From the IMG/VR virus record IMGVR_UViG_3300046524_000235: a stretch of 64,000 nt of DNA; one strand, 5' to 3'. A model generated the notes under the pieces. That model saw only the letters and a program-made list of their open reading frames with translations, ran no database searches and had not been told where the DNA came from. Both the position numbers and the translations under genes were made by a program. This DNA is from a virus. Taxonomy: Duplodnaviria > Heunggongvirae > Uroviricota > Caudoviricetes. Shown here one piece after another: positions 3,282 to 47,966 of this stretch (positions are counted from its first letter, which is position 1; every line of letters begins with the position of its first letter).

Positions 3282-3426
3282 GGCTGTTTCACCAAATTAA
3301 TTGAGAAGGAGGAAGATCGGCCTTCACCATTGGAGCGTTGACGAGGACGTAGGACAAGTACGTCTTCAGCTTGACGACAATAATGCGATCTTCCTCAATA
3401 CTCTTATACCAAAATACTGGGGATTA

Positions 3427-40810: not shown

Positions 40811-41125
40811 ATGAATAAGTACCTAGAGAAAATCGCATCCGCAAAAGCTGTAGCTGAATCCATAACTGGTTTCGGCAAAAGTTTTGCGAAGGGCTGGAAA
40901 CGAAGCTCAACAACTTCTAAAGTTGGTCTGGGTATGTCTGCTGCCGGTCTCTCTCTAGGCGCTGCTAATTATAGTAATAGCCTAGAGAATAAGCTTGACA
41001 ATAAAAAACGTGGCGTACTTGAGGCGCAATCGCTGAACGAGCTTAAGGGTATTTCAGAGGCTCTTAGGAAAAAGCCTAAGGTAACCGTAAATCTGAAATT
41101 AGTCCCTGACCAAAATGCAAAATAA
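40811..41125 (+). CDS. Tagged small virion protein
   Basis: Starts MNKYLEKIAS; Gly-rich hydrophobic segment. Confidence 0.65.
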   Translation: MNKYLEKIASAKAVAESITGFGKSFAKGWKRSSTTSKVGLGMSAAGLSLGAANYSNSLENKLDNKKRGVLEAQSLNELKGISEALRKKPKVTVNLKLVPDQNAK

Positions 41126-41947: not shown

Positions 41948-43462
41948 ATGCTAACTAAACTAATCGATACGTCTTCTTTTTACCGTGAAGAACCACAGGT
42001 AACTATTCTCGATCCCAAAGATCTTACAGGCAGTCTTATTAAGCAGGCTACGGATTCTCGCATTCAAGAATTCGCTTCTAAACTAACGCCCATTCAGGGC
42101 AAGACGTATCTTCACATTCTAGCTATGGGTGCTGGAGAGTTTTATGGTGCAAACCGTAATGCTGACTACTTCCCAGAAAGTAGCCTCATTGATTACCACA
42201 ATACCTTTGAGACTGCTCCTGCCCATATTTTCAGAAACCACGTAAACAAAAATCCCGAAATCGCTATTGGTCAAGTTGTGTACTCTGTCTACAACGACAG
42301 AATGCACCGCGTTGAGCTTATCGCTGAGCTTTGGAACGACAAGGCTCCAGACATCGTTGATCGTATCGAAAGCGGTGACTGGCCAAAGACTTCAATGGCT
42401 TGCCGTACACCTTTCGATGTTTGTTCAATTTGTGGTAACAAAGCTCGTACCCGTGAAGAGTATTGTGAGCATCTAAGCGAACAGTTGGGTAAGGTTTTCC
42501 CTGATGGTCGTAAGGTAATGGCGCTTAACTTGGCTCCATTGCGATTCTTCGACATCTCTATTGTATTTCGTCCAGCAGACGTAACTAGCGCAGTTCTACA
42601 GAAAGTAGCATCTGAAAGCGAAGTGATTGGTTCAGTGGATGAGGCGCTAATGGCTGGTCTAAATGACCTTCCGTTACAGAAGAGTGCTACTCTTAAAAAG
42701 CTTTCAGAATTAACGAAGGAGATTGATGGCGATGTTGTATCTATCGATTCTAATCTTGATAATCTTGTATCACGAGTTAGTGATCCGCAAGGATCGGTTA
42801 TCGATGTTCTTCGAAATTATAAGCTTAATGAGACTTTTAGTACCTTTGCTCATCTTGGCATTAGCCCTTCGATTGGTTTTCTCGCTGAACTGATTGCTAG
42901 AAAATTGATGGGTGAAGAAGGGCGCGGCATTGGCCCAATGGCTGCTGCATATTTTGATAAGGTTGGTCTTACTGCTATTCCCGAATTCGACCGTGATTTC
43001 GGTGAAATTACAGAACCCAACATCGGTATCGTTCATGCTATGCTTCCTCATATGCAGGATGCCTCGTATCTTCCACAGTATGTTGAGGAACGTGTATCGC
43101 TGAACAAACAGGCTTCGACTTACGGTTATGTACAGGGTACTAATGTTGGCTTTGTCGGCAACGGTCCTCACATCGAACCTACGATTTACGAAAAGTTCCG
43201 TGAACAGAATCTCAAGTCAGAAGAAGGGAATAAGTCAAGTTTGATGAAGATGCTTACTGCCATTGCTGCTATCGGCGGAGCTGCTCTAGCTGCTAAGTGG
43301 TACATTACCCAAGCAATAGAGCGGAAAATGAAAGAGCAAGAATTGAACAAGGCTTCAGATGGTGTTAAAATAGTTTTAGTTAAATCTGCTTCTGACTATA
43401 AGCTGACTTACAAACTCGCCAAAACAGCGATGGTTAAGTTGGTTCAGAAGAAAAAGAATTGA
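41948..43462 (+). CDS. Prohead maturation protease (assemblin/HK97-like fold) with C-terminal extension
   Basis: FRNH, TSMAC and RPAD as putative His/Ser/Asp; CSICG...CEH zinc site; upstream of scaffold and capsid genes. Confidence 0.8.
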   Translation: MLTKLIDTSSFYREEPQVTILDPKDLTGSLIKQATDSRIQEFASKLTPIQGKTYLHILAMGAGEFYGANRNADYFPESSLIDYHNTFETAPAHIFRNHVNKNPEIAIGQVVYSVYNDRMHRVELIAELWNDKAPDIVDRIESGDWPKTSMACRTPFDVCSICGNKARTREEYCEHLSEQLGKVFPDGRKVMALNLAPLRFFDISIVFRPADVTSAVLQKVASESEVIGSVDEALMAGLNDLPLQKSATLKKLSELTKEIDGDVVSIDSNLDNLVSRVSDPQGSVIDVLRNYKLNETFSTFAHLGISPSIGFLAELIARKLMGEEGRGIGPMAAAYFDKVGLTAIPEFDRDFGEITEPNIGIVHAMLPHMQDASYLPQYVEERVSLNKQASTYGYVQGTNVGFVGNGPHIEPTIYEKFREQNLKSEEGNKSSLMKMLTAIAAIGGAALAAKWYITQAIERKMKEQELNKASDGVKIVLVKSASDYKLTYKLAKTAMVKLVQKKKN

Positions 43463-43520
43463 CCTAAGATTTTCGAAAGGCTACAATTCAACGTAGCCCT
43501 ATTAAAAAAGGATATTAGTC

Positions 43521-44384
43521 ATGATGAGTTTCACTCTAGACGGTCTTCTTAATGATCTGCAAAAAGAAGCTGGCCTCCATAAAGTAGCTAGTGAAGATAC
43601 AGAGAAAGAAGAAAAGAAAGATGAAGATAAGGCAGAAAAGGCTATCGACAAAGCTGACAAAGATGTAAAGGAAGCTAAGGAAGAAGTCAAGGACGCCAAA
43701 GAGAAGAACGATGCTGATGAACGTGTCAAAGAAGCTGCGGCTAAAGGCGCTGACTTAGCAAAAGAAGTAATGCAAAAAGTTGCATCCATTAAACTTGATC
43801 AAGTTAAACCAGAGGATACTATGAACAAACAAGCTGCTGACGCAGGCAAGGCACTAGCCGAAGCTCTTCTTGAAAAGCTGGCTTCAGTAGGTGACCAAAA
43901 TACCGTTAACGGTATTGGTAATGCTGTACCGAACAAGACACAACAAGATCTTGCAGCTCAAGTAGCTGAACAAGATGCTATCATCCAGAACCAACCCGGC
44001 ACAGACGGCAAGGGTAATGGTGGTACAATCAACCAAATCTTCGACGCAATCGTTGCTGACGCAATGGCTCGTGGAGCTGCTCCAGTTGATCAAAATCCTG
44101 CTCCTGGCATTGCTAAGGATGAAGGCGCACAAATCGGTGCACAAGCTCCTAACCAAGTTCAAACTGGTGGTTGGGTAACGGCTGGTCAAGAAAAGGCTGC
44201 TGCAGTTTCATCACTCGTTGAGCAAGGCTTTGAATTTGACGATGCAGTAAACATGGTCAAGGAAGCTGCTGAAGAAATCGAACGTGAAGAAGCTTCACAA
44301 GTTAAGCAAGCTGCACTGTCACACTTCATCGAAGCTGGCTTCGATTTTGACACCGCAGTAAACTTGGTAAAAAAGCTGGGCTAA
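43521..44384 (+). CDS. Scaffolding-like protein (short form)
   Basis: Charged coiled-coil N-terminus, many K-x-A sites; between protease and capsid. Confidence 0.7.
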   Translation: MMSFTLDGLLNDLQKEAGLHKVASEDTEKEEKKDEDKAEKAIDKADKDVKEAKEEVKDAKEKNDADERVKEAAAKGADLAKEVMQKVASIKLDQVKPEDTMNKQAADAGKALAEALLEKLASVGDQNTVNGIGNAVPNKTQQDLAAQVAEQDAIIQNQPGTDGKGNGGTINQIFDAIVADAMARGAAPVDQNPAPGIAKDEGAQIGAQAPNQVQTGGWVTAGQEKAAAVSSLVEQGFEFDDAVNMVKEAAEEIEREEASQVKQAALSHFIEAGFDFDTAVNLVKKLG

Positions 44385-44926
44385 CGAAAGAAGCGGGTGT
44401 CCTGCAACTAGCGGGTAAAGTTCCAGGCACTTCGTTAGCTCAAAAAGTCACACGTATTCCAGGCTCAGGTGGGGGTCCCAAGAATGTTATGGGTGCTCCA
44501 CGCACACTGAATAAGGCTAGGGTCGCAGCAGCGGCCACTGGCGCAGGAGTCTTAGGTCTAGGTGTTGGCGCCGCAGTACAAAAGAACAAAAACCAAGAAA
44601 AACAAGCTGCAGTAAGTCTTCTGGTAGACTCAGGTCTGGATTTTGAAAATGCAGTTGATCTAGTAGAAAAGAAGGCTTCTGAGTTAGAAAAAGAAGCTCT
44701 TCTTAGTGCACTAAGTGGTTATGCTGGATCCAAGAAAGGTGATAAAGTAGGTGGTACCTTATCAGGATTCGTAACCGGTACTGCAGGTGCAGTAGCAGGT
44801 GTTCATGCAGCTGGACTTCCAGGACTTGTTGCAGGATCTGTCGGCGGTGGATACCTTGGCGGAAAAGCATATTCGGCAATCAAAGGTGCTCTAGCAGACA
44901 AGAAACATAAATCTAAAGCAGACTAA
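44369..44926 (+). CDS. -1 frameshift extension of the scaffold (predicted ~468-aa long form)
   Basis: A_AAA_AAG at 44369-44375 in frame; -1 frame open from 44351 to 44926 and continues the scaffold's repeat motif. Confidence 0.7.
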   Translation, partial: KKAGLTKEAGVLQLAGKVPGTSLAQKVTRIPGSGGGPKNVMGAPRTLNKARVAAAATGAGVLGLGVGAAVQKNKNQEKQAAVSLLVDSGLDFENAVDLVEKKASELEKEALLSALSGYAGSKKGDKVGGTLSGFVTGTAGAVAGVHAAGLPGLVAGSVGGGYLGGKAYSAIKGALADKKHKSKAD

Positions 44927-44949
44927 CTAGCTTGATTTTATAAAGTAAG

Positions 44950-44984
44950 AACCCCTCTGTATCCTCGATGTAGAGGGGTTTTTT
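44950..44984 (+). terminator. Intrinsic terminator
   Basis: AACCCCTCT/AGAGGGGTT stem followed by Ts. Confidence 0.75.
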
Positions 44985-45421: not shown

Positions 45422-45902
45422 GTACTTAGAGAAAGTTGCTTCCATATTTCCAAGCAAAGAATATAGAAAGACTTTACATGGAAGAGAAAAAGCTAACTAC
45501 GATGTAGAATACGCTACTGCTGGCAGATCTAGTCTTAAAAACTTTGGAAAAACTCTTCTGGGTATCGGAGCAATAGGCTTAGGTGCTGGGTTTGGGCATC
45601 ATGGCGGAGCTACTCTCGGTGGTAAAATCGGAGCCAAGATTGGAGCCAAGCAAGGAAAGAAATTTGGTGCTGAGGCATATAAGAGTCTTATGGCAGGTGG
45701 TAGAACTCCAGAGCGTGAAGCTAAAGGCTTTGCAGTGTATGCCCATGACATGATTAAACAGAAGACTCAAAATGCAGGTAGGGCTGTAGGCGGTGTTGTC
45801 GGAGGTACGGCAGGCATGATTCCGGGAATAGCTTACGCTGATAACTTCAGACACAACCACGCTAAGAGCGTAATCGAGAAAAGACGTAAACAAAATGACT
45901 AA
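45411..45902 (+). CDS. Tagged glycine-zipper protein
   Basis: Starts MSNKYLEKVAS; GxxxG-rich segments. Confidence 0.65.
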   Translation: MSNKYLEKVASIFPSKEYRKTLHGREKANYDVEYATAGRSSLKNFGKTLLGIGAIGLGAGFGHHGGATLGGKIGAKIGAKQGKKFGAEAYKSLMAGGRTPEREAKGFAVYAHDMIKQKTQNAGRAVGGVVGGTAGMIPGIAYADNFRHNHAKSVIEKRRKQND

Positions 45903-46494
45903 ACTATCAACAATCCTCAAAGACCACGCTGAAACAGTTCGTCTTGCAACTCCCGAAGCTGTTGCTATCGAACATCTTAAGCAAGCTGGTTTTAGCGATG
46001 CAGATGCTCGTTATCAAGTAGCTCAACATATCATGGAAAAAGAGGCTACGTCAGCTCTAGCTATGAAGGGCGTTGATCATGAAGAAGCTGTAAAGCTTGT
46101 TAAAGCAGCAAACATTAACGTTGCTGAACTTTCAAACTTCGTTCTTGAAGTAGATGAAAATCCAACGGTTGAACTTCTGCACAAGACAGCTGAATACGTT
46201 GATGCTCTAGAAGCCCAAATCGAAGGCCTGAAGGCTGAGATTGAGAAGCAGGCTACCGAACATCAAGTCGCACTCGACAGGGCTCTAGAAGTGCCTGTAG
46301 AGATGCCTGAGCAAATCACTAAGCTGGCTTCTGCCGCTCAGTTCACACAAGAAGATCTGGAACAACTCCAACGAGTCTCTCCTGAAGTTCTTCAGAAGGT
46401 TGCATCTGCAATGGATGAACCGTGGGGAATGGGTAATGGCGTAGGCTTTGCTCGTCCTAAGACTGATCCCCTTCTTGAATTCATGCTGAGCTAA
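45895..46494 (+). CDS. Scaffold/core-like helical protein
   Basis: Acidic coiled coil with LKQA, MEKEA, LHKTA, IEKQA, LQKVAS sites; directly upstream of capsid genes. Confidence 0.6.
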   Translation: MTKLSTILKDHAETVRLATPEAVAIEHLKQAGFSDADARYQVAQHIMEKEATSALAMKGVDHEEAVKLVKAANINVAELSNFVLEVDENPTVELLHKTAEYVDALEAQIEGLKAEIEKQATEHQVALDRALEVPVEMPEQITKLASAAQFTQEDLEQLQRVSPEVLQKVASAMDEPWGMGNGVGFARPKTDPLLEFMLS

Positions 46495-47072: not shown

Positions 47073-47966
47073 ATGAGCGCATATAACACAGAAACCGTAA
47101 ACGTACAATTCCTGAATCAATCTTTCCTAGACAAGATTGACCAAGGTCACACCAAAGAAGCTTCAGCTGCAATGTCAGCTTTCGTACGTCAGAAGCTTCG
47201 TGAAGACGGCTTTACCCGTAAGATTCTTACGCCAGTTCAAATCACAGCTTCAGAGCTTGATCGCCAACTGACCGAAGAACCAACGGTTATCGTTGAAAAG
47301 GAACCTGATTCAGTAGCTGCTACTGCTCCTTTCCTTGGCCGTCCGGAAATCCGTTACTGGAAGACACAACGTTACCCAGTTACATTCCAGAAGATCCAAT
47401 CAGCTGACTTCCGTAAGAGCAAGTTCGAACTCGCTACATACCGTACCGACATTCGTACTATCCTTCAAGAAAACAGCGTTAAGGATATTCAAGAACAAGA
47501 AGACGTAAACTTCTATCAAAACATCAACGCTATTGCTACAGCAAACAGCAACGTTCACACCATCGCTGGTGGCTTTACAAAGGCTAACCTGATGGCTGGT
47601 ATCAAGTTCATGCTTCTGAACAAGCTACCTGTTGGTTGTATCCTTATGACACAATCAATGTACGCTGACCTGCTGACTTTTGCAGCAACAGACGTAGGCT
47701 CACCGGCAGCATCAGCACTGTTCCAAGGCGAAGCGACTCTTGATAACTTCTTCGGTTACAAGATCATCACCACGAACAAGGCTAACATCCTCCCGACGAA
47801 CCAAGCAATCGTTTTTGCTCCTCAGAACTACCTCGGTCAGTTCTATGAGCTTCAAGCTCCGACAGTCTTCCTGAAGACCGAAGCAGACATTATCGAGTTC
47901 CATACTTACGAAGCTGTAGGTGCTGGTATCGGTAACGTAAATGGTGCAGTTGTTCTAAACTTCTAA
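47073..47966 (+). CDS. Major capsid protein (HK97-fold, inferred)
   Basis: Strong RBS, highly biased codons, position after protease/scaffold/decoration; N-terminal HTKEAS putative processing site. Confidence 0.8.
   Translation: MSAYNTETVNVQFLNQSFLDKIDQGHTKEASAAMSAFVRQKLREDGFTRKILTPVQITASELDRQLTEEPTVIVEKEPDSVAATAPFLGRPEIRYWKTQRYPVTFQKIQSADFRKSKFELATYRTDIRTILQENSVKDIQEQEDVNFYQNINAIATANSNVHTIAGGFTKANLMAGIKFMLLNKLPVGCILMTQSMYADLLTFAATDVGSPAASALFQGEATLDNFFGYKIITTNKANILPTNQAIVFAPQNYLGQFYELQAPTVFLKTEADIIEFHTYEAVGAGIGNVNGAVVLNF

Follow-up and report, generated by a model that had tools for sequence, protein, structure and literature searches.

In the nested scaffold/protease pairs of phages (lambda C/Nu3, Mu I/Z and P2 gpO), an internal in-frame start yields products that share their C-terminus. 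Other phage structural genes use frameshifting to add a C-terminal extension, namely T7 10A/10B, the major head and tail proteins of Lactobacillus phage A2, SPP1 gp17.1/17.1* and lambda G/GT (references in PMC5221750). A frameshift has also been described in the major capsid protein (MCP) gene of an MSTV1-like archaeal virus, and in the MSTV1-like virus vir272 the extension is fused in frame (PMC11375127). Here we analyze a stretch of 64,000 nucleotides (nt) of Caudoviricetes DNA (hereafter the window), which corresponds to bases 2542-66541 of the 181,435-bp IMG/VR record IMGVR_UViG_3300046524_000235, a viral genome with direct terminal repeats. It contains a scaffold-like gene, whose open reading frame (ORF) is followed by a long open segment in the -1 frame. 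According to the interpretation we favor, with a probability of roughly 0.8, the 3' end of this gene carries a real and conserved recoding site, at which a -1 ribosomal frameshift on an A run would give a short and a long form from one gene. That it is the ribosome and not the RNA polymerase that slips, the efficiency of this event, the part played by a downstream RNA hairpin, and the scaffold function of the protein are what we infer from the sequence.

The 3' end of the 0-frame ORF reads GTA (44367-69) AAA (44370-72) AAG (44373-75) CTG GGC TAA (44382-84). A first-pass annotation, made from the DNA alone, had pointed out the heptamer A_AAA_AAG two codons before the stop of the putative scaffold ORF, and we find it at 44369-44375, in the slippery phase. 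Its further statements, that the -1 frame is open for another 183 codons and that the two products would have 287 and about 468 amino acids (aa), agree with our translations. A TGA at 44349-51 closes the -1 frame, which is then open from 44352 to the TAA at 44924-26; the overlap of the two frames is therefore only 33 nt long (44352-44384), with the heptamer inside it, and the window's -1 frame contains no ATG, GTG or TTG before the ATG at 44489. The word AAAAAAG occurs 17 times on the plus strand of the window, and A_AAA_AAG in the slippery phase is found only four times in the ca. 215 ORFs of the whole genome; from these counts we estimate the chance of an in-phase heptamer in one given 33-nt overlap at well under 1%. 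The only other in-phase A_AAA_AAG near a stop in this genome is located outside the window, on the minus strand at G000:C1 107940-108513, four codons before the stop, where only two -1 codons follow before a terminator; it is a chance occurrence and serves as a negative control. A consensus scan revealed a promoter-like match and a terminator-like element (Table 1) that bracket the gene and its extension together, and no further promoter-like site between 43459-43487 and 44947-44983.

We propose that most ribosomes would stop at the TAA at 44382 and produce the 287-aa short form, and that a fraction would slip back by one nt on GUA AAA AAG (A run 44369-44375). The slip may be tandem, with two tRNA-Lys moving on A_AAA_AAG, or may be confined to the A site on A_AAA, and the product would be identical. 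Slipped ribosomes would read the -1 frame to 44926 and produce a 468-aa long form (285 + 183 aa), in which NLVKK is followed by AGLTKEAG in the computed translation, so that the junction would read ...FDTAVNLVKKAGLTKE. The long form would regain the family-wide end of repeat 2 (K-x-A-G) and gain a Gly/Ala-rich linker, a third helix-turn-helix repeat (with which members of the family normally end) and a tail resembling a glycine zipper. The extension had been described initially as a further copy of the scaffold's own repeat with hydrophobic Gly-rich helices; we indeed identified a third repeat at 44594-44680 and two Gly/Ala-rich hydrophobic stretches. Because the slip restores the full-length protein, it would provide a fixed ratio of truncated to full-length protein.

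Searches for homologs revealed a family of more than 130 members, ca. 90 of which are single ORFs of 310-500 aa. The single-ORF homologs run past repeat 2 via a Gly/Ala-rich linker to a third repeat ending with ...ELYG, and this linker-plus-third-repeat part is the part encoded in the -1 frame in the window; for instance, the single ORF L006/P0033, which is 52% identical, aligns across the junction. Thus, the extension belongs to the same protein. Repeat 2 ends with [LM][VI]K-x-A-[S/G] in 91 out of 91 single-ORF homologs; in the window the 0 frame reads LVK-K-L-G-stop and the -1 frame reads K-K-A-G-L-T. The shift can be placed on the A run, because only a change of frame between AAA 44370 and GCU 44375 keeps AVNLVK and restores the invariant Ala (VKKAG). 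The repeats in general end in a Φ-x-K-x-A-[S/G] motif, which the frameshift restores at the junction, where a second copy (GLTKEAG) follows. Eight single-ORF loci read at the DNA level have GTT AAG, GTT AAA, ATC AAA or ACG AAG at the Val-Lys site. We also found a homolog (P0051) that ends with VKQLS and is possibly an independent truncated form.

Comparison of the extension with that of the lineage L016 shows 18, 13 and 57 differences at the first, second and third codon positions of the -1 frame, respectively; over the 35 codons that directly follow the 0-frame stop and precede every possible start, the corresponding values are 2, 3 and 13. This pattern is that of a coding sequence under purifying selection, beginning with the first codon past the 0-frame stop. 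It bears directly on the solution offered by gene callers, which split the gene into the 287-aa protein and an artificial 145-aa ORF, i.e. on the idea that the extension is an independent 145-aa protein translated from the ATG at 44489. Such an ATG-started ORF does exist, and the ESM Atlas contains exactly this 145-aa product. The extension has no convincing ribosome-binding site, as had been noted at the outset, but this is a poor discriminator: about half of the genes of this phage have no Shine-Dalgarno-like motif, hence its absence proves little. On the other hand, the ATG at 44489, which the first-pass annotation itself had named as the possible independent start, is not conserved and corresponds to Leu in the relatives, the position of the first ATG/GTG/TTG differs between all lineages, and the -1 ORFs of L027 and L044 are devoid of such codons over their whole length. 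Moreover, the 35-38 codons upstream of this ATG evolve as -1-frame coding sequence (with the third-position bias in the first 35 codons given above), and in ca. 90 single-ORF homologs the entire segment is continuous with the upstream gene. We therefore regard two separate genes as highly improbable.

The two-frame layout with GUA AAA ... GGGCUAA is kept in 15 distinct lineages, identified in IMG/VR, JGI, ENA and Logan assemblies (the window, L003, L016, L027, L028, L029, L036-L040 and L042-L045). The short forms of the other lineages share 66-95% identity with that of the window, and in a tree of 119 homologs the frameshift lineages are found in one clade with support of 1.0. The GUA AAA sequence, and with it the A_AAA tetramer, is invariant in all 15 lineages, and a full heptamer is present in ten (A_AAA_AAG in eight, A_AAA_AAA in two); the conservation of the heptamer in relatives, for which the first-pass annotation had called, is thus complete for the A_AAA part only. 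Three lineages (L029, L039 and L042) have one extra codon before CTG/CAG GGC TAA, between the A run and the stem described below. The frameshift extension is modular and varies in length between 107 and 273 aa (compare L016, L028 and L045 with the window and L003), as it comprises one or two further repeats, with or without the glycine-zipper-like block (GDKVGGT...GGYLGGKAYS). Four single-ORF proteins of 405-431 aa (P0013, P0015, P0016 and P0017, from L017, L018 and L019) are placed inside the frameshift clade, in which some inner nodes are weakly supported. They have unrelated junction and linker sequences (ELTKVAAASG...) and possess neither the GTA AAA nor the hairpin; their 3' part may have been replaced by recombination, which would have undone the frameshift.

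A break within a homopolymer, in a gene that is one continuous ORF in more distant relatives, could in principle be due to an indel introduced by sequencing or assembly, or mark a pseudogene of recent origin. Yet A6G without an indel was found in independent contigs of four runs, namely two rhizosphere DNA runs (word depth 33-92 and ca. 5) and two soil RNA libraries, the latter as contig consensus, from contigs that cover the stretch in part. Single-ORF homologs are the more distant relatives, and the 15 closer lineages, although diverged to ca. 65% identity, all retain the two frames, with purifying selection acting on both parts. With synonymous-site conservation and a covarying hairpin around the site in addition, an artifact or a pseudogene is hardly credible, and the checks for an indel and for continuous relatives, which had been proposed with the initial observation, both come out in favor of a genuine frame change.

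Downstream of the A run we predicted a long bulged RNA hairpin (Table 1), which stands out in a local 85-nt fold but not in a 181-nt context fold (z = -0.6). Folding predicts this architecture for 14 of the 15 lineages (the segment folded for L040 was truncated), and the 9-bp core pairs in all 15; 91% of the hairpin cells are paired across the 15 sequences, compared to 25-43% with slid partners. Three pairs exhibit compensatory changes, from C-G to U-A (with a U·G intermediate), from U-A to C-G and from G-C to A-U. Nucleotide identity to L003 and L008 is 100% over 44355-44399 and 84-96% to ca. 44459, against 76-91% upstream and 50-70% downstream. The 3' arm is kept as UCG UUA GC even in L027, where the peptide encoded between the arms is unrelated, and its Ser and Leu codons are rare ones (TCG, 11% of Ser; TTA, 9% of Leu). 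We found no Rfam family at the site. The hairpin is a probable stimulator of slippage. A small GCGGG/CCTGC hairpin noticed earlier does exist at 44392-44405 and competes with the upper stem of the 44377-44442 hairpin; as a conserved element it was rejected, for it exhibits no two-sided change (and hence no covariation) and fails in four to five lineages, and it is the larger hairpin that is conserved instead.

An alternative is transcriptional slippage, in which host or phage RNA polymerase would add an A in the A6 run and the long form would be translated from the edited mRNA. That products of this kind can arise in this way is well established (PMC5009743). In its favor, the shift site is a homopolymer of A, and the phage possesses its own unusual multisubunit RNA polymerase. 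Efficient transcriptional slippage, however, usually needs 8-9 or more A, and the run has just six here and only four to five in five relatives that keep the two-frame layout. Besides, the contigs of the two RNA libraries have A6 (consensus only), and a covarying downstream hairpin fits a ribosomal stimulator better. We consider this route to be quite improbable.

Similarly improbable is recoding at the stop itself, either by a -1 slip of P-site tRNA-Gly on G_GGC with UAA in the A site, or by termination-reinitiation at UAACG/UAAUG. Such events would be compatible with the invariance of GGGCUAA in 15 of 15 lineages, and with the sequence UAAUG in three lineages, in which gene callers start a gene at that AUG. 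These are L029 (3376-3390), L039 (ca. 3380-3392) and L042 (ca. 1332-1344), in which the AUG is in the -1 frame; the C-to-U change is compensated by a G-to-A change on the 3' side of the hairpin, except in L042, where a U·G pair is left. However, a slip on GGC would give VKKLGLT and so lack the Ala present in all 91 single-ORF homologs, and the -1 codon before GGG always encodes a small residue (A, T or S; TP in L042). In 12 of the 15 lineages the codon available for reinitiation is ACG, which is not a usable bacterial start. A ribosome at that position would also hold the 5' arm of the hairpin inside, and dual coding together with the stem suffices to explain why GGGCUAA is invariant.

Several observations do not fit easily with tandem ribosomal slippage stimulated by the hairpin. 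Five of the 15 lineages, scattered over the tree, do not have the second half of the heptamer and carry ACA (two lineages), AGA, AGG or CGU instead; because of this loss, tandem slippage is not the universal mechanism, and these lineages must use the weak A_AAA tetramer, which would permit the slip of a single tRNA only, or something else. Among bacterial -1 heptamers, A_AAA_AAG and A_AAA_AAA are the most frequent, and tetramers of the type Z_ZZN can function as well if a downstream structure is present; in E. coli, tetramers with a strong downstream structure shift at 0.26-5.6%, with A_AAA among the weaker ones (PMC4066793). The hairpin starts only 1-4 nt past the heptamer. The usual spacer of a stimulator is 5-9 nt. 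Counted from the A_AAA tetramer, the distance is 4-6 nt; the three lineages with the extra codon also have 4-6 nt between heptamer and stem. No conserved Shine-Dalgarno-like stimulator was found upstream of the site in the 15 lineages. Termination-reinitiation at UAAUG is possible in L029, L039 and L042, and the consensus of the RNA contigs would be compatible with a minority of slipped transcripts.

The frameshift layout probably has a single origin, namely the loss of one base from an ancestral sequence for ...VK(E/Q)AG.... Removal of one base from GTA AAA GAA GCT GGG (VKEAG) yields exactly GTA AAA AAG CTG GGC TAA, so that a single deletion would create both the broken frame and the slippery run. 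A more far-reaching scenario, which we put forward only tentatively and consider unlikely as a whole, holds that a deletion rescued by its own slippery run has since been turned into a tunable control on head assembly, with the rare long form carrying glycine-zipper segments into the prohead. According to this scenario, variation between lineages in the A-site codon (AAG, AAA, ACA, AGA, AGG, CGU) and in the hairpin spacing would result in different ratios of the two forms, and the phage tRNAs Lys-UUU, Val-UAC, Thr-UGU and Arg-UCU would decode exactly the slip-site codons. The head protease may cut at the K-x-A motifs and free these membrane-active-looking segments, which would then function in ejection or channel formation and not as scaffold alone. 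The tRNA genes form a cluster of 21 at G000:C1 134516-155520, outside the window, which includes those for Lys-UUU, Val-UAC, Thr-UGU and Arg-UCU; a tRNA with the anticodon CUA at 147295-147370 (annotated as 'Pyl' by ARAGORN) would be amber-suppressor-like.

Table 1. Features of the frameshift gene and its surroundings in the window (positions are those of the window; MFE, minimum free energy).
Feature	Position	Strand	Remarks
Protease-like gene	41948-43462		phrog_18299 'head maturation protease' and phrog_2774
Sigma-70-like promoter match TTGACC-17-TACAAT	43459-43487	+	consensus scan only
0-frame ORF, short form of 287 aa, ATG start	43521-44384	+	acidic, probably helical N-terminal part; conserved central part; two repeats
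Helix-turn-helix repeats 1 and 2 of the short form	44187-44270, 44298-44375	+	
Slippery heptamer A_AAA_AAG	44369-44375	+	0-frame X_XXY_YYZ phase, two codons 5' of the stop; proposed shift site
0-frame stop TAA	44382-44384	+	within the 5' arm of the hairpin; GGGCUAA invariant in 15/15 lineages
-1 frame extension, 183 codons and stop	44375-44926	+	
AGLTKEAG motif of the extension	44375-44398	+	
Conserved bulged RNA hairpin (predicted)	44377-44442	+	MFE -26.8 kcal/mol, z = -2.8 (local 85-nt fold)
Lower stem of the hairpin	44377-44387 with 44432-44442; core 44379-44387 with 44432-44440	+	
5' bulge of the hairpin, 8 nt, AAGAAGCG	44388-44395	+	
Upper stems of the hairpin	44396-44399 with 44428-44431; 44401-44404 with 44424-44427	+	variable apex, 20-45 nt
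Gly/Ala-rich hydrophobic stretch of the extension	44519-44578	+	
Third repeat of the extension, QEKQAAVSLLVDSGLDFENAVDLVEKKAS	44594-44680	+	
Glycine-zipper-like, Gly/Ala-rich hydrophobic tail of the extension	44750-44863	+	
Intrinsic-terminator-like hairpin and U run	44947-44983	+	just 3' of the -1 ORF; same element after the extension in L029

The phage genome has a GC content of 44% and 21 tRNA genes, and its DNA is present in many rhizosphere and soil metagenomes. PHROG matches indicate that it codes for its own multisubunit RNA polymerase mentioned above. Its MCP (47073-47966, phrog_2522) exhibits 55% identity to the MCP of Salmonella phage Arash and ca. 50% identity to the MCPs of three Vibrio phages with genomes of 180-187 kb. 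It has been reported that Arash is an 'orphan' myovirus, whose multisubunit RNA polymerase is virion-associated (PMC10585845). The head module comprises, in this order, the protease-like gene, the frameshift gene, two small MNKYLEKIAS genes, a gene for a 199-aa protein, a decoration-like gene and the capsid gene, i.e. the frameshift gene is located between the protease-like gene (41948-43462) and the MCP gene (47073-47966). A search of the isolate phage collection with the frameshift gene (DNA and protein) gave no match, and only the MCP query reached Arash and the three Vibrio phages. The closest isolate homolog is gp223 of Arash (OQ632216), a single ORF of 255 aa with 30% identity and three repeats, annotated solely as 'structural protein'. 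It shares with the window gene the repeats and the position after the protease homolog (gp222 in Arash), but, unlike it, has no Gly/Ala-rich linker and no frameshift. Mass spectrometry of virion preparations identified Arash gp223 (9 peptides, 283 spectra) together with 115 other proteins (PMC10585845).

The nature of the frameshift protein was addressed by comparisons of sequences and models. Pfam gave only sub-threshold noise (Dynamitin, Baculo_p74), PHROGs have no family for the short form or the extension, a profile search of the PDB returned only a marginal match to the UBA domain (E = 0.15), and none of the homologs from NCBI carries a name. An AlphaFold2 (AF2) model of the single-ORF homolog P0033 has a mean predicted local distance difference test score (pLDDT) of 64.6 and, according to DSSP, consists mostly of helices with no strands; the repeats form helix-turn-helix units with pLDDT of 83-96, and the remainder is of low confidence. 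A Foldseek search of the PDB with this model gave no match at E <= 0.001. For the extension, the ESM Atlas provided only low-score leads to glycine-zipper families and tape-measure-like helices, and it is from these leads that its tail appears similar to a glycine zipper. The position after the protease, the acidic and probably helical N-terminal part, and the helix-turn-helix repeats of the AF2 model together suggest a scaffold or prohead-core protein. The scaffold label given to the gene in the first-pass annotation can therefore be retained as far as gene order, composition and helical repeats are concerned, but not in the sense of a match to a described scaffold family.

Further observations concern other genes of the head module. 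Small head-module proteins encoded by ORFs starting at 40811, 41115, 44996 and 45411 open with a common tag M(x)NKYLEKIA(S) and have Gly-rich hydrophobic stretches; they are also found in L003, L006 and L008. The tag, which may be a head-targeting or protease-recognition signal, resembles the pattern [G/Y]L-x-K-x-A-[S/G] seen in EAGLHKVAS (43566-43592, near the N-terminus of the scaffold-like protein) and in AGLTKEAG at the junction. The gene for the 199-aa protein (45895-46494) directly precedes the decoration-like and capsid genes. Its product combines helix-turn-helix motifs of the type (G)x(D/S)xxxA with a coiled-coil stretch and is conserved both in the relatives and, as gp225, in Arash. 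A role as a second scaffold-like protein is conceivable; a BLASTP comparison with the frameshifted gene revealed no significant similarity.

We found no published report of a frameshift in a scaffolding gene; papers that pair a scaffolding protein with programmed frameshifting describe other genes where checked, and in the accessible part of a 2016 recoding review neither scaffold nor prohead is mentioned. The mechanism is thus ordinary, and it is the gene context that appears undescribed. Because of the split made by gene callers, the true long isoform would be missing from databases for the whole clade of Arash-like soil phages. If the frameshift is confirmed, head-scaffold-like genes will join those of tail chaperones, capsid and tail-tube proteins as phage genes that fix ratios of products by ribosomal slippage. 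The clade offers a natural series for the evolution of frameshift efficiency, with full heptamers, A_AAA-only sites, two hairpin spacings and single-ORF relatives, one subclade of which has apparently reverted. The junction peptide, as well as mutants restricted to either the short or the long form, would provide handles on head assembly in a phage group in which almost all proteins are unannotated.

Comparison with known recoding signals places the site close to those of E. coli dnaX (tau/gamma) and of the IS3/IS911 type, with which it shares the heptamer and its phase, a conserved downstream helix, synonymous-site conservation and the common N-terminus of the two products. There are also clear differences. 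In dnaX the shifted product is the shorter one, whereas here the shift would add 183 residues; the upstream Shine-Dalgarno-like stimulator of dnaX is not present; and the helix starts 1-4 nt past the heptamer, compared to ca. 6 nt in dnaX, and is a long bulged hairpin that holds the 0-frame stop. Unlike in the dnaX and IS3-type signals, a third of the relatives keep A_AAA only. With regard to the products, the locus resembles T7 10A/10B and the A2, SPP1, lambda and MSTV1-like cases: it is a late morphogenetic gene that would yield mostly the short form and, in an amount determined by slippage, a minor form extended at the C-terminus; the extension lacks a start codon, and some relatives are fused in frame. 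Those cases, however, concern capsid, tail-tube and tail-chaperone genes, while the gene described here is scaffold-like and located between the prohead protease and the capsid gene. It also resembles lambda C/Nu3, Mu I/Z and P2 gpO, where one head-assembly gene provides a fixed mixture of two related proteins that share repeats or domains; in contrast to these pairs, the two forms predicted here would share the N-terminus and differ at the C-terminus as a result of recoding.

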